From Dehalococcoidia bacterium (GTDB taxonomy: Bacteria > Chloroflexota > Dehalococcoidia > UBA2979): 64,000 nucleotides of DNA. The position numbers and the translations under genes are program-made. The stretch lies in assembly GCA_965219085.1 (NCBI GenBank), contig OZ244720.1:3168001-3232000 (forward strand), written 5' to 3'. Numbering within the stretch: position 1 is the stretch's first letter; each line of letters begins with the position of its first letter. Positions 4,055 to 9,455 of the stretch are shown here, in pieces. The notes below the pieces were generated by a model that worked only from the letters and a program-made list of their open reading frames with translations, did not search any database and was not told the origin of the DNA.

Positions 4055-4327
4055 TTACTTGCGTCGGCGCTCGGTCCAGGTCGCGTGCCGCGGCTGACCG
4101 GCTTCGCGGACACGATCGCGAAGCCGCCCGAAGTAGTCCGCATCGGCGGTGACTGCCTGCGGCGACGCCGCGCCTTCGAGGAACGGGCCGCGTAGGCGCT
4201 GGCGATCCCGGTCCTTGCGGATTAACTCACCGACGTACTCGCTTGACGAGCTGTAGCCGCGGGCGCTGACCTGCTGGTCCACGAAGGCCTTAAGGGCCGC
4301 GGGGAGCGATATGTTCATCGTGCTCAT
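4055..4327 (-). CDS. parD: ParD-family (RHH) antitoxin; no intact ParE follows
   Basis: MSTMNISLPAALKAFVDQQVSARGYSSSSEYV. Confidence 0.8.
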   Translation of the reverse strand: MSTMNISLPAALKAFVDQQVSARGYSSSSEYVGELIRKDRDRQRLRGPFLEGAASPQAVTADADYFGRLRDRVREAGQPRHATWTERRRK

Positions 4328-4399: not shown

Positions 4400-4970
4400 A
4401 GGTCGCCAGCGCTACCCGACGGTGGGGCCAGGCGATCCGGTTGAACCGGCCGTCCTGCTGGAGATGCAGCGCCTGCTGCTCGCCCGGCACGCCGCTCGAG
4501 GAGCACGGCGGGCGCCTGCGAGACCAACAGAACTAGATCGGAGGCTCCGGGTACAACCCGTGCGCGGCGGCGTTCGTGCCGCCACCCCCGGAGGTCGTGG
4601 AGGACCTGTTCGACGACCTCTGCGCCTTCGCCAGCACCGATGCGTGGCCACCGCTGGTCCAGGCAGCGATCGCGCAGGCGCAGTCCGAAACCATCCACCC
4701 GTTCGTGGACGGCAACGGGCGCGTGGGCCGTGCCCTGATCCATTTGGTGCTGCGGCGCCGCGGGCTGGGGCTCCGGGTCCCACCACCCATCTCGCTGGTG
4801 CTGGCGACGTGGCCGTCGGCCTACGTACGTCGGGCCGCCCGACAGCGCCGGAGCGCGCGACGGCTTCGAGCACTGGGTGGAGCTCGCCGCCGCGGCGTGC
4901 CTGCGTGCGGCGGGCGATGCCGCACGTTTCGAGGAGCGGGTGCAGGCGCTCCAGGCGGAGTGGCTCGACC
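4400..4970 (+). pseudogene. Fic family protein remnant, paralogous to 57096-58283 and truncated by the IS1111-type element
   Basis: RDQQN*IGGSGYNPCAAAFVPPPPE...ETIHPFVDGNGRVGR; internal stop and frameshifts; start approximate. Confidence 0.8.
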
Positions 4971-5053
4971 GTATGGAGTGACCGGCTCCGAGTTCGCAAA
5001 CTCGCGGGTTACAGACGCGAGGCATGCAGAGCCGCATGCGAAAGGAGCCGGTC

Positions 5054-6166
5054 ATGGAGATGACTACCACATACGCAGGGATGGATGCACACGTGCGGGC
5101 GATCCACGTGGCGGTGCTGGCGCCGGGGGCCGAGCGGCCCGAGGAGTGGCAGTTGACGAACGAGTCGCGCTCGGTGAAGCGGCTCGCGCAACGCCTGAAG
5201 CGCATGGCGCCGGGGCCGGTCGTGGCCTGCTACGAGGCCGGTCCGGGCGGCTTCGCGCTGCAGCGCCAGCTCGAGGCCGAAGGCATCGAATGCCAGGTGA
5301 TCGCGCCAGCGCTGATCCCCAGGCGGCCCGGCGACCGCGTCAAGACCGACCGTCGCGACGCACGGAAGCTCGCCGAGCTGCTGCGCGCGGACCTGCTCAC
5401 GGCGGTGCATCCCCCCACCGTCGACCAGGAGGCGGTGCGCGACCTCTGCCGGGCGCGCGAGGACGCCGTGACCGACCGCACCCGCGCGCGCCACCGCCTG
5501 GCGAAGCTGCTGCTGCGGCGCGGCATCGCCTACGACGGGCGGAACTGGACGAAGCGGCACCGCAACTGGCTGCTGACGCTGCGCTTCGAGCACCCGGCCG
5601 CGCAGGCCACCTTCGACGACTACCTGCGCGCGCTCGAGGGCGTGGAGGAGCGGCTGCGCGCGCTGGAGCAGGAACTGGCCGCGTGTGCCGCCGGCGACGA
5701 CTACCGCGAGGCGGTGGGGCTGCTGCGCTGCTTCCGCGGCATCGACACGGTAACGGCGCTGACGGTGCTGGCCGAGCTCGGCGACATCACCCGCTTCGGC
5801 AGCGGGCGGCAGTTGATGTCGTACCTCGGGCTCACGCCCAGCGAGTACAGCAGCGGCGCCCGTCAGCGGCGGGGACCGATCACCAAGACCGGCAACGCCC
5901 ACGTGCGCCGGCTGCTCGTAGAGAGCGCCTGGCACTACCGCCACCCACCACGGGTGGGGGTGGCGCTCCGCAAGCGGCGCGAGGGCCAGCCGGGCTGGGC
6001 GGTGGCGCTGGCCGACCGGGCGCAAGCCCGGCTCCACCGTCGCCACCGGCGGCTGATCGCTCGCGGCAAGCCGTCGGTGGTGGCGAACGTCGCCGTGGCG
6101 CGCGAGCTCGCCGGCTGCCTGTGGGCGGTGCTGCACAACAGCGCGGAGCAGCGCGCGGCGGCCTGA
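5054..6166 (+). CDS. IS110/IS1111 family transposase (DEDD recombinase)
   Basis: GMDAH, CYEAG and KTDRRDA RuvC-like motifs; SEYSSG...ITKTGN Tnp domain; AAGGAG RBS upstream. Confidence 0.93.
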   Translation: MEMTTTYAGMDAHVRAIHVAVLAPGAERPEEWQLTNESRSVKRLAQRLKRMAPGPVVACYEAGPGGFALQRQLEAEGIECQVIAPALIPRRPGDRVKTDRRDARKLAELLRADLLTAVHPPTVDQEAVRDLCRAREDAVTDRTRARHRLAKLLLRRGIAYDGRNWTKRHRNWLLTLRFEHPAAQATFDDYLRALEGVEERLRALEQELAACAAGDDYREAVGLLRCFRGIDTVTALTVLAELGDITRFGSGRQLMSYLGLTPSEYSSGARQRRGPITKTGNAHVRRLLVESAWHYRHPPRVGVALRKRREGQPGWAVALADRAQARLHRRHRRLIARGKPSVVANVAVARELAGCLWAVLHNSAEQRAAA

Positions 6167-6361
6167 TGCAACGCGCCGCGGCGAAGGCGGAGACGGTGAT
6201 ACGCCGCTCCGGGGCTGGAGCGGATGGATGAGCGAGGACACGCTCAGGAGGATGCGCGGAAGCACTGTGCGGCAACGGCGCCTGGCGCCGCCAACCCGCG
6301 ACATCAGACGGCGAACCCTCCCGGCGAAGCACGGTCATGCGGCAAGGCCCCAGGCAACCCG
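6167..6361 (+). ncRNA. 5' part of the putative seek/bridge RNA of the IS1111-type element; continues at 7869-7965
   Basis: Two related units GAAGCAC..TGCGGCAA..CAACCCGCGA..ATCAGA; the second holds ACGGTC (reverse complement of left-end GACCGT, 4967-4972) and is split by the nested IS. Confidence 0.6.
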
Positions 6362-6377
6362 ACGTTCCTATAGAGAG

Positions 6378-7637
6378 TCAAGGGAGCGATCCGGCAGCCT
6401 CCCGCGCGGCGTGAGCGGCGAGGCGATTCGGGACAGAGGGATGCCCCGCTTCCAACCCCGCCCGCGCTGATCCGGGATCCGTGGATGCCCGTGTTGGCTG
6501 CCGTGGGTGCTCGCCGTCCACAGACGCGGGGGGCCCGCCCTCACAGGCGCGGGGGGCGCCGGGAGTCGAGCCGGGCGACAGCTGCGTGGCGTATCGCGCC
6601 AGATCGGCAGTGAGCGTTCGATAGAGCTGGCGAGCGACATAGCGCTTCAGGCAGCGGATGATCTCGCGTTTGGACTTACCCTCCGCAGTGCGCTTCGCCA
6701 CGTAAGCCCTGGTGCGGGCGCAATAGCGCAGGCGGACGAGCACGATCCGGTACAGCGCGCTGTTGGCCTGCCGGTCGCCGCCCGGGTTCAGGCGATGTCG
6801 CTGCGTGCGCCCGGAGGACGCCTCGAGGGGCGCGGCGCCGCAGAGCCGTGCGAAGGCGGCCTCGCTCGACAGCCGTCCGATGTTCTCGCCGGGGGTGACG
6901 AGTAACTGCGCGGCGTTCACGATGCCGACACCGGGCAGTGCGAGGGAGCCGGGTGCGACCCTCTCCACAAGTGACCGCAGCGCCTGGTCGAGATCGGCGA
7001 CCTCGCGGTCCAGCTCGGCGACGTGGTGAGCGACGCTGCGCAGCGCGAGCTTCGCGGCCTGTAGTGGTTGGTCGAGCCGGGCCCTGTCCGGACGGAATCG
7101 CGCGCACTGCCGCGCCTTCGCGGGCAGGGTCTGCTGCGGCAGCGCCTCGCGGAGTTCCGCCGGCGCCGTGGCGATCAGGTCGCGCAGCTGCAGCAGCGCC
7201 GCACTGCGGGCCTTGACCGCGGCTGAACGAGCATTTGCGAGGGTGCGGATCGACTCGACGACACCGTTCGTGGCCTTGGGCAGCACCTGCGCCGTACCCG
7301 CCAGCACCTGCCTCGCGGCGGCCTCGGCGTCGATCGGGTCTGACTTACCCTGGCGCCGGCGCGTGTGCCGGTGCGGCTGGCTGACCTCGCGCACATCCAG
7401 CCCCTGTGCGAGCAACCAGCGTGTGAGCCCGGCCCCGTAGGACGAGGCGCCCTCCACGGCGATCGTCGCGATCGTGCCGAACGCCTCCAGCCACTGGTGC
7501 AACTCCCGGTAGCCCCGCGCGGTCGCTGGGAACTCGGCATCCCCGAGTCTCTCTCCTCGATCGTCGAGTGCGACTGCGTGGTGCGTGCGGGAGTGGGTAT
7601 CCACCCCTCCGATGACACCGCTCCGCGTTTCCGGCAT
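6378..7637 (-). CDS. IS110 family transposase (bridge recombinase)
   Basis: GVDTH, VEG and GKSDPIDAE DEDD residues; PLEASSG, HRLNPGGDRQAN and IIRCLKRYVAR motifs. Confidence 0.93.
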   Translation of the reverse strand: MPETRSGVIGGVDTHSRTHHAVALDDRGERLGDAEFPATARGYRELHQWLEAFGTIATIAVEGASSYGAGLTRWLLAQGLDVREVSQPHRHTRRRQGKSDPIDAEAAARQVLAGTAQVLPKATNGVVESIRTLANARSAAVKARSAALLQLRDLIATAPAELREALPQQTLPAKARQCARFRPDRARLDQPLQAAKLALRSVAHHVAELDREVADLDQALRSLVERVAPGSLALPGVGIVNAAQLLVTPGENIGRLSSEAAFARLCGAAPLEASSGRTQRHRLNPGGDRQANSALYRIVLVRLRYCARTRAYVAKRTAEGKSKREIIRCLKRYVARQLYRTLTADLARYATQLSPGSTPGAPRACEGGPPASVDGEHPRQPTRASTDPGSARAGLEAGHPSVPNRLAAHAAREAAGSLP

Positions 7638-7659
7638 GCTCGCCGTACCTTCCTGCGGG

Positions 7660-7855
7660 GAGGTGTGTGACCGGGTCGTGGTGGGCGGACAGAACAGCGA
7701 TGAGGCAACTCTGAGCCAGGTTCCTATGAGGTCACGCCACCCGCGGCCCGGTCACTTGGTGGATGCGAGGAGGGCGGAGCCGACACGTCGGATTGAGGAC
7801 ACCGCTCGCGGTGGGTCAGCGAATATCTAGGTCAGGCTCCGTCCTTCTCGCTGTG
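7660..7855 (-). ncRNA. Putative bridge RNA (target-binding and donor-binding loops)
   Basis: Stems 7836-7850/7766-7780 and 7741-7755/7667-7681; loop segments match both target flanks and both element ends. Confidence 0.8.
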
Positions 7856-7984
7856 AGTATCTTCGCTGCGAATATCAGAGTGACACGTCGTCGAAGCAGC
7901 GCCCTCGTTCGTCCATCTCCCCCCGTTCCGGAGCCGGATCGCCACGACCACCGCCGGTGCTGCTTGACAGCCGGTCACTCCATA

Positions 7985-8859
7985 TCAGCTGTACGTCGCG
8001 AAGAGCGCGAGCTGTGAGCCGGGCGTCGGCTTCACGCGCCGCACGATGAGCCGCACCGCGCTGGCGTCCGCCATGTGCTGGAACGGCGTGTACGTCGTCT
8101 CGGCGACAGCGGCGCCGCCCGGCAGCCAGTACGGGATCGGCGTCCAGTCCGCTTCCGGTATCGCCTCGATCAGCGTGCGTACGTTCGGCTGCTGGCGAAT
8201 CGTGACCGAGAAGCGGACGTCCTGCTTGCGGCAGGCGGCGACGACCCCGTGGTTGTAGAAGCCGCTGTCGGCTCGCATCGTGAGCTGCCCGCTCGCCCCG
8301 GCGTCGCGGACCCGCGCCACCGTCTCACGCAGGAAGTGGGCGGCGCCGCGCCGGGTCCCGCTCCGGCCGCCCATGCGCGGGCGAGCAATGCGCGGCTGAG
8401 GCGGTCGAGCTGGCGGACGTGGCCCCAGCGGAAGCTGCGCAGGAAGGTCCCGAGGGTGGACGGCGCCTTCACGGTGCAGCCGAGCACGCGCCCGGCGCCG
8501 CCGGCGCGCATCGCATCGGCGTCGTCGATGCAGTCGCCGCCGGCGAGCGCCGAGGCGACCAGGGTCAGCAGCTTGTCGCCGGCGTTCGCCCGCCCCGGCG
8601 CGTCACCGAGGTCGAGATAGCGCTCGGCAAGATCGGGGAGACCGAGACGACCGGCGAGCGTGGCGGGGAGCAGCAGGCCCGCGTGGTCCACGAGGCGGTC
8701 GTCGTCGAAGGCGATGTCTATCCGGTCGGGGCTGCTCGCTGCTAGCATCGAATGGTTGCTCCCTGTGGCTCGGACGTGATTCGTACAAAACCATTGTCCC
8801 AGCTACAGCGAAGCACCCAACCTCAGCCGCTCATGAGCTCTTCTTCGGTGGATCAGGGG
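7985..8859 (-). mobile_element. IS1380 family remnant (internally deleted, 3'-truncated transposase)
   Basis: FDDDRLVDHAGLLL, GGDCIDDAD, APSTLGTFLRSF, MRADSGFY, RLIVRRVKPTPGSQL; terminal CCCTGATCCACCG near 8846-8858; cut at the right end of the IS1111 element. Confidence 0.85.
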
Positions 8860-8963
8860 TAAGCAGCATTGCCTATGGCCGATCGAGGTCGCAGTCGCCC
8901 AGTCCCTGAGGCGGGGGGCCTTCGCATCGGCCTCCGACGAGGCGACCATCACGTCGCGGCTGT

Positions 8964-9455
8964 CTAGTCTCGGTGCAACCAGCGCAACGGCAGAAGTACG
9001 CCGCCCGCCTGGAACTCGTGGCCCTCCGGCGGTCGACGCTCGCCTGGCGTAACCGCGGTCCGGTCGACGTATACCTCGCCATCGCGGACCTCGACGGCAA
9101 GGCGATCGAGACCGCGCGGCAAGGAAACGCGCGGGTGCGTTTCGTGGCCCGCCAGGTCGTACGTGAACGGCCGGCATGTGTCGAGACACCAGCCCGTGCG
9201 GCCGTGGAGCGAGAAGTCCGGGCGGTACGCCACGACGCACTCAGGGTCGGGATGGGGAACCCTGGCGACCAGCGCTGGGAGCTTGCCGGCGTCAACACGA
9301 ACGACGTGAAACGCCAACGGCTCGACGGCGTCGCCGAAGGGCGTGACCGAACCCGGAGGGAAGTCCTCGATGGAGCCCACGTCGACCCATGGATCCTTGC
9401 CTATCCACACGACGTTCCAGACCGGCGCCCTGGCTGAGGCGGTGAGCAGGCGCAT
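8964..9455 (-). CDS. Rieske-fold-like protein with degenerate metal ligands (possibly a pseudogene)
   Basis: WVDVGSIEDFPPGSV...TYDLAG...PRGLDRLAVEVRDGEVYVD; CxH and CxxH boxes not intact. Confidence 0.5.
   Translation of the reverse strand: MRLLTASARAPVWNVVWIGKDPWVDVGSIEDFPPGSVTPFGDAVEPLAFHVVRVDAGKLPALVARVPHPDPECVVAYRPDFSLHGRTGWCLDTCRPFTYDLAGHETHPRVSLPRGLDRLAVEVRDGEVYVDRTAVTPGERRPPEGHEFQAGGVLLPLRWLHRD

Follow-up and report, generated by a model that had tools for sequence, protein, structure and literature searches.

An IS110-group element interrupts an IS1111-like element

We analysed a window of 64,000 nucleotides (nt) from a Dehalococcoidia bacterium (assembly GCA_965219085.1, contig OZ244720.1, positions 3,168,001 to 3,232,000; all coordinates below are those of the window), in which one insertion sequence (IS), here called the invader, lies within the non-coding region of another, here called the host. 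The invader is an IS110-group element of 1507 nt on the minus strand (6362-7868). It sits between CAACCCG (6355-6361) and CGAATATC (7869-7876) in the 3' non-coding region of the IS1111-like host, as the original prediction had described and as direct reading and a script check confirmed. Its limits were set by comparing two copies and two empty sites in the same genome (G000); one terminal base is common to the element and its target, and 6361-7867 is therefore equally possible. The invader carries a single recombinase gene of 419 amino acids (6378-7637, minus strand) with a DEDD RuvC-like domain (PF01548, DEDD_Tnp_IS110; E = 1.3e-21, 77.4 bits, cut-off 29) and a Transposase_20 domain (PF02371; E = 3.2e-15, 56.7 bits, cut-off 21.3), and phmmer returned weak matches to the ISCro4 and IS621 transposases in PDB. 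Upstream of the gene, the left end comprises 231 nt of non-coding DNA (7638-7868), while the right end comprises 16 nt (6362-6377), so that the open reading frame (ORF) stops 16 nt short of the terminus. The C-terminus of the recombinase (6378-6570) is about 65 amino acids longer than that of homologues of 350-390 amino acids with 58-68% identity. No terminal inverted repeat was seen when the ends were read by eye, a repeat search not having been run. A possible circle-junction promoter was also noted by eye, with TTGACT 15 nt from the right terminus and GATACT at 7861-7856; across the joined ends their spacing would be 21 nt, which exceeds that of a standard sigma-70 promoter. The domains, the layout of the ends and of the guides described below, and the insertion at one site in one orientation place the invader, as judged from these features, in the IS110 group.

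The host measures 1515 nt without the insert (4967-7988, plus strand), and five aligned copies run from GACCGTATGGAGTGACCGG (4967) to CACTCCATATCAG (7988). Its ORF (5024-6166, plus strand) matches PF02371 with 79.9 bits and PF01548 with 72.3 bits. A subterminal inverted repeat of 15 bp, TATGGAGTGACCGGC, lies at 4972-4986 (plus strand), with its complement at 7970-7984; repeats of this kind, 7-17 bp long, are given as a mark of the IS1111 group (PMC11208160). From the stop codon (6166) to the right end, the host has 315 nt of non-coding DNA, insert excluded. Its domains, its subterminal inverted repeats and its long, guide-bearing right end (see below) are those of an IS1111-group element.

The invader encodes a predicted two-loop bridge RNA

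In bridge RNAs of the IS621 type, the left guides carry the top-strand sequence of the DNA that they recognise, and the right guides pair with that strand (PMC11208160). Folding of the 206 nt upstream of the invader gene recovered the two stem-loops of the original prediction (z = -4.33; none of 200 shuffles equalled it), with stems at about 7835-7851/7765-7781 and 7747-7755/7667-7675. Together with contigs from RNA libraries, this fold delimits a predicted bridge RNA of about 185-200 nt (7658-7857, minus strand). Its target-binding stem-loop (7765-7851, minus strand), the basal stem of which is conserved, holds the left target guide (LTG) GAUAUUCGC (7819-7827, minus strand), which is 9 nt long including the core C and has the sequence of the left target's top strand; on the plus strand, GCGAATATC was found at 7819-7827 and again at 7868-7876. 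The LTG begins 41 nt from the left end, a distance of 41-45 nt being found in most of the relatives listed, and is followed by a small hairpin and by CAAUCCG, which is able to pair with the right target CGGGTTG. The donor-binding stem-loop (7667-7755, minus strand), supported by the fold and by the anchor GUGACCUCAUAGGA, contains the left donor guide (LDG) AUAGGAAC (7720-7727, minus strand), the same sequence as the right end of the invader (6364-6371); the script check found GTTCCTAT at both positions. It also contains the right donor guide (RDG) UCGCUG (7695-7700, minus strand), which pairs with the left end CAGCGA (7868-7863): the plus strand reads CAGCGA at 7695-7700 and TCGCTG at 7863-7868. 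The proposed matches to the left target and to both ends were thus all reproduced.

The match to the right target was upheld in part. The sequence CGGATTG, complementary to CAATCCG, was read at 7789-7795, and the pairing of CAATCCG with CAACCCG in the flank (6355-6361) involves a single G:U, as had been claimed. The right target guide (RTG) itself is taken here as 4 nt rather than 7, namely UCCG (7789-7792, minus strand), which pairs with the CGGG of the right target through three Watson-Crick pairs and one G:U, because the homologous position in relatives (see below) corresponds to UCCG after conserved scaffold. The adjacent CAA (7793-7795) could give three extra pairs with TTG, but it belongs to a conserved CUCAA scaffold, and these pairs may or may not count.

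The chance of such matches was assessed with 5000 dinucleotide shuffles of the non-coding region of the invader. The 9-nt identity to the left target was reached in 11 shuffles, the 8-nt identity to the right end in 51 and a 7-nt pairing to the left end in 180, while pairing of 7 nt with the right flank was not significant when taken by itself, 3456 of the 5000 shuffles reaching eight pairs somewhere. None gave all four matches jointly. This result bears on a first alternative, in which the recombinase picks its site by DNA shape or sequence, for example a hairpin-prone host RNA gene, and the loop matches are incidental. The target does lie in stem-forming DNA, and an IS110 element has been reported to use structure plus sequence (10.64898/2026.03.19.712850). 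Incidental matches would hardly be expected to occur all four in the order and strand sense of IS621, and the same loop positions change together with different flanks in relatives, as set out in the next section. We therefore consider this alternative highly improbable.

An Rfam search of 4500-9000 with E values up to 10 gave no bridge-RNA family and two unrelated matches below threshold. Contigs from three metatranscriptome runs of two studies (181-258 nt, one mismatch each) cover 7658-7843, 7662-7841 and 7665-7857, which weakly hints at a discrete RNA expressed over the predicted bridge RNA (7658-7857). Another contig, from a run of unrecorded library type that was treated as DNA, continues past the lower boundary of the predicted RNA. 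In the RNA-library runs most of the recombinase gene had no contig, and these uncovered parts were not counted as evidence.

Guides covary with flanks and ends in relatives of the invader

Covariation was examined in elements 45-57% identical in protein, taken from genomes and metagenome contigs; these distant relatives were chosen because close ones are too alike to show it, and among the 80 metagenome loci kept no relative exceeded 57% identity. Of 139 upstream regions, 128 contained the donor-loop anchor, two of these 128 being from close copies in a second genome (G015). After removal of close copies, 125 anchored distant relatives were left, and 86 were kept for which 8 nt of flank were available and the left end could be placed by means of the complement of the RDG. 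The 9-mer ending at the left end was found in the element's own target loop without mismatch in 35 of the 86 and with one mismatch in a further 30, compared to 0.5% and 7.9%, respectively, when pairings were permuted between loci. An exact second occurrence of the LDG lay downstream of the gene in 75 of the 86, and in 74 of these 75 it was followed by two bases and a C, the core base. For the right target, 44 of 73 relatives showed full pairing between the 4 nt directly 5' of a conserved A-N-N-Y-G-U-C motif and the core C together with the three flank bases after it (permuted pairings, 10.5%); the homologous position in the invader is UCCG, preceded by the conserved CUCAA. A free search for 7 nt pairing with the right flank gave a weak signal (13 of 75 perfect, compared to 7.9% in controls), and among the tests of this flank a clear signal came only from the 4 nt at the fixed position. 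The covariation of both target guides among homologues, which had been proposed as a check, supports the assignment of LTG, RTG, LDG and RDG in the IS621-type layout.

RNAalifold applied to 54 aligned relatives recovered the target-loop stem, where compensatory changes support 11 of the 21 pairs predicted, but missed the stem of the donor loop, probably owing to the alignment. One relative of 1358 nt and about 50% protein identity occurs in 14 and 5 copies in two further genomes (L062-L080; G043 and G042), with flanks of roughly GGTCTGAGATCTGA|C|AGAGCC, and many of its copies adjoin another repeated element. In its loops, the positions that correspond to the invader guides by homology are occupied by UCUGAC, GCUCUG, AUAGGAGC and UCCCUG.

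The target lies in the bridge-RNA gene of the host

The 3' region of the host contains two near-repeat modules, each consisting of a variable segment, UGCGGCA, a hairpin, CAACCCGCGA and a second variable segment. In the first, target-binding module, the 5' variable segment pairs with the copy's own right flank in six different variants: TACACC with GGTGTA, TACAGC with GCTGTA, CTCACC(C) with (G)GGTGAG, GCCTGC with GCAGGC, GGACAC with GTGTCC and GACCTC with GAGGTC. The 3' variable segment is similar to the left flank, whose last bases are CTAG or TTAG. In the second, donor-binding module, ACGGUC pairs with the left end GACCGT and is replaced by ACUGUC where the left end is GACAGT, and AUAUCAG equals the right end and is replaced by AUACAAG in copies whose right end has changed likewise. 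A consensus fold of eight variants comprised 70 pairs, 15 with compensatory changes (24 of 560 cells non-canonical), and UGCGG/CCGCG formed the inner stem of each module. With four guide segments that covary with its ends and flanks, the host 3' region is a guide-RNA gene. In the window this gene is divided by the invader into a 5' part (6207-6361, plus strand), with the outer stem, all of the target-binding module and the donor-binding module as far as its first half, and a 3' part (7869-7933, plus strand), where the LDG is found together with the 3' strand of each of two stems, the module stem and the outer stem. The host RTG region lies at 6260-6265 and the host LTG at 6302-6307, both in the target-binding module, and the host RDG ACGGUC at 6331-6336 and the host LDG AUAUCAG, which equals the host right end, at 7872-7878 (all on the plus strand).

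The insertion point of the invader falls within the 3' strand of the donor-binding module's inner stem (CCG|CG), 3 nt before the host LDG. The half-site CAACCCG (6355-6361, plus strand) belongs to this 3' strand, and CGAATATC (7869-7876, plus strand) comprises the end of the inner stem and the first 5 nt of the host LDG. The target had been described as a scaffold motif of the host guide RNA; this holds for the guide-RNA gene and for part of the motif, but the right half, AATATC, covers the start of the host LDG. Since the 9-nt LTG of the invader reads into this host guide, it is explained why the first module, which shares CAACCCGCGA with another continuation, was hit by none of the nine copies or fragments described below, an observation that also argues against site choice by hairpin-prone DNA.

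Separately, contigs from the metatranscriptome runs mentioned above (X15, X16 and X17) join 6268-6360 to 7868-7990 without the 1507-nt insert, so that these libraries include the host RNA gene in uninterrupted form.

The invader has inserted repeatedly at a single site

Searching G000 with 6300-7930 revealed a second full copy and two empty sites. The empty sites read GGCAACCCGCGAATATCAGAG, in which the left flank, up to 6361, is directly joined to the right flank, beginning at 7868, and both junctions and the empty site share a single base, G on the plus strand and C in the orientation of the invader. It follows that the insert is 1507 nt long and that nothing beyond this base was duplicated. 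Uninterrupted host copies, which the original prediction had expected to read CAACCCGCGAATATC, did so in all seven empty copies of G000 and G015 (exact 19-mer). At up to one mismatch, the 15-mer target had no occurrence in the 3.3-Mb genome G000 outside the two empty hosts.

A survey of 99 genomes of the order for proteins at least 92% identical to the invader recombinase found them only in G000 (two), G015 (four) and a third genome, G022 (two, truncated), the last of which also holds a degraded fragment of 82% identity (L029). Close relatives in protein sequence were P0001 (97%; 87 member sequences), P0002 (94%), P0003 (98% over 74% of the query) and P0075 (95% over 51%). All six full copies have both junctions between GGCAACCCG and GCGAATATCAGAGTGAC and a single orientation, the two truncated copies of G022 retain the same right junction, with GCGAGTATC, and the degraded fragment aligns across it as well. 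Copies with the same guides at unrelated sites, which would have spoken against targeting, were looked for and none was seen: all nine copies or fragments from these three Dehalococcoidia genomes lie at this one junction. A further host in G022 (L036, from about 2885 onward) has its donor-binding module cut two bases past the equivalent site; the element inserted there is unrelated and codes for an integrase of the rve type (PF00665, E = 5.5e-24).

A shared site could also arise by descent, if one ancient insertion had been carried along as the host multiplied and diverged. This would suit the two copies of G000, which share a near-identical block and are possibly one event, and the two filled type II hosts of G015, which stand at separate loci with a single base of difference in 3067 and might stem from two insertions or from the movement of one composite. 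An old insertion would be expected to diverge with its host, but the four inserts of G015 are identical (no differences in 1507 nt) and lie in three host variants that are 85, 77 and 71% identical to a G000 host copy (copy C) and differ just outside the conserved motif. Insert and host trees of G015 do not mirror each other, and empty copies exist for two of the three filled variants. Identical inserts in diverged hosts imply at least three separate insertions in G015, to which G000 and G022 would each add one if theirs were not inherited. Common descent from one insertion therefore appears very unlikely, and the claim that the insertion was targeted is borne out by the nine junctions and by their recurrence in the diverged hosts of G015.

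Copies A and B of G000 and the neighbourhood of the host

The copy in the window (copy A) and the second copy of G000 at 1.08 Mb (copy B; G000:C1:1083090-1085470) show two differences over 6352-8731, while their left host parts differ by 7-21%. The near-identical block of 2.4 kb comprises the insert, the right part of the host and a flanking DDE element, and its left edge lies within 10 nt of the invader junction. The DDE element is a fragment of a DDE_Tnp_1_4 insertion sequence (7989-8866, minus strand) that had received a host copy of this type. Copy B is a triple nest, its host lying inside the DDE_Tnp_1_4 element at GGCGTGGTAG|CTGTACG, a site that its own RTG fits. The guides of copy A fit neither of its flanks, and copy A is without the left part of the DDE element. 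The shared block and the unfitting guides indicate that copy A is a chimera with its right part from a B-like copy, and the two copies are therefore not to be counted as two events. Gene conversion, a crossover and a recombinase-mediated exchange at the junction are all candidate origins of the chimera.

The DDE_Tnp_1_4 insertion sequence measures about 1643 bp and occurs at least eight more times in G000, with an intact copy at G000:C1:2005159-2006801; the copy in the window, besides missing its left part, has an internal deletion of about 172 nt. To the left of the host, an ORF of 90 amino acids (4055-4327, minus strand) resembles, by eye and from its N-terminus, a ParD/CopG-like ribbon-helix-helix antitoxin.

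Discussion

Taken together, our results suggest that an IS110-group invader, guided by its own bridge RNA, homes into the bridge-RNA gene of an IS1111-like host, a reading to which we assign a probability of about 85%. The main inference of the original prediction is thus supported, and targeted insertion into the host guide-RNA gene is well supported. In the proposed mechanism, the 231-nt left end of the invader would encode the two-loop bridge RNA of about 190 nt beside the DEDD recombinase. The donor loop, with AUAGGAAC and UCGCUG, would recognise the invader's own right and left ends, while the target loop, with GAUAUUCGC and UCCG, would specify GATATTCG-C-GGG(TTG) in the orientation of the invader. 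In the genomes examined, the target so specified is present only in the 3' bridge-RNA gene of the host, where it spans the 3' strand of the inner stem of the donor-binding module and the initial five bases of the LDG. Recombination at the single shared C would then insert the invader in one orientation without duplication. By analogy with IS621, the RNA probably guides the reaction here in the same way.

Several points weigh against this reading. The role of the RNA in target choice is deduced here by sequence comparison, and the similarity of the recombinase to the structurally solved one of IS621 is weak (phmmer E = 4.9e-4). The RTG is just 4 nt long and includes a G:U among its pairs. The RNA-library contigs carry no readable strand and do not give the true ends of the bridge RNA. 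Close copies (at least 92% identity) come from three related genomes, so that independent events are few, and the two copies of G000 may represent one insertion. Finally, the flank GCGAGTATC in G022 occurs with an unchanged guide, which makes it a tolerated U:G rather than a compensatory change.

For the host, the split of its donor-binding module makes it a reasonable inference that the invader parasitises and disarms it, as had been proposed: insertion would stop the interrupted copy from making its own bridge RNA, although intact copies could supply RNA in trans. The invader may in turn benefit from a landing site that is multicopy, dispensable and mobile. The same targeting could instead be antagonistic, an arms race in place of a neutral safe harbour, with RNA-guided transposons preying on each other via their guide-RNA genes. 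The target takes in 5 nt of the host LDG, which must match the host right end, and a preyed-upon host could therefore not freely change this stretch. Consistent with escape, G022 hosts in which guide and end have changed together (AUACAAG), and whose stem has changed to GGTACCCCGCG, carry no insert, and the invader occurs in G022 only as truncated relics in remnants of G000-type hosts. This case is built on three genomes and solely on sequence data, G022 hosts are diverged overall (71%), so that a changed site needs no special explanation, and interrupted hosts could still move by means of RNA from intact copies. We therefore regard both the arms race and the status of G022-like hosts as escape variants as rather doubtful.

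Both elements resemble known systems. Similar to IS621 and other IS110-group elements with bridge RNAs (Durrant et al. 2024, PMC11208160; Hiraizumi et al. 2024), the invader combines a DEDD and Transposase_20 recombinase with a guide RNA in the long left end, separate target and donor loops, a 9-nt LTG and a 4-nt RTG, and inserts into a repeated sequence without duplication. It differs in its crossover at a single shared C, compared to a CT core in IS621, in its target, which is the guide-RNA gene of another IS rather than a repetitive extragenic palindromic (REP) sequence, and in its recombinase, which is only a distant relative of the IS621 transposase. Homing into other mobile elements has been described for IS4321/IS5075, which enter the ends of Tn21, and for IS1111-attC elements, which enter integron attC sites (both cited in PMC11208160). 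Like the IS110-family element that homes into a Tn3-family transposon, the invader uses a conserved, functionally required transposon sequence in one orientation. In that case, however, the target is a protein-binding inverted repeat, whereas the present target is the donor-binding module encoded by an RNA gene that belongs to a sister group within the same IS family, and the invader, unlike that element, is of the IS110 group. The host shares with ISEc11 and other IS1111 elements with 3' seekRNAs or bridge RNAs (Siddiquee et al. 2024, PMC11187229) the subterminal inverted repeats, a long stretch of non-coding DNA after the gene, RNA segments that match both target flanks and the lack of duplication. 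Its RNA may differ from theirs in having two near-repeat modules and the right guide 5' of the left guide. We found no report of an IS110-family element that targets a bridge-RNA or seekRNA gene in the literature searched, the supplementary target tables of two 2024 papers lying outside its scope.

Known homing targets of bridge-RNA elements include REP sequences, integron attC sites and the ends of Tn21; here the natural target belongs to a second bridge-RNA element, in the form of its guide-RNA gene, which indicates that bridge-RNA genes can themselves serve as landing sites. The invader and its host would form a natural pair of orthogonal bridge systems within one cell, and a simple model of conflict or hitch-hiking between RNA-guided transposons. 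The roughly 90 natural guide/target pairs, with guides of 9 + 4 nt and a single-C crossover, could help to define targeting rules outside IS621.

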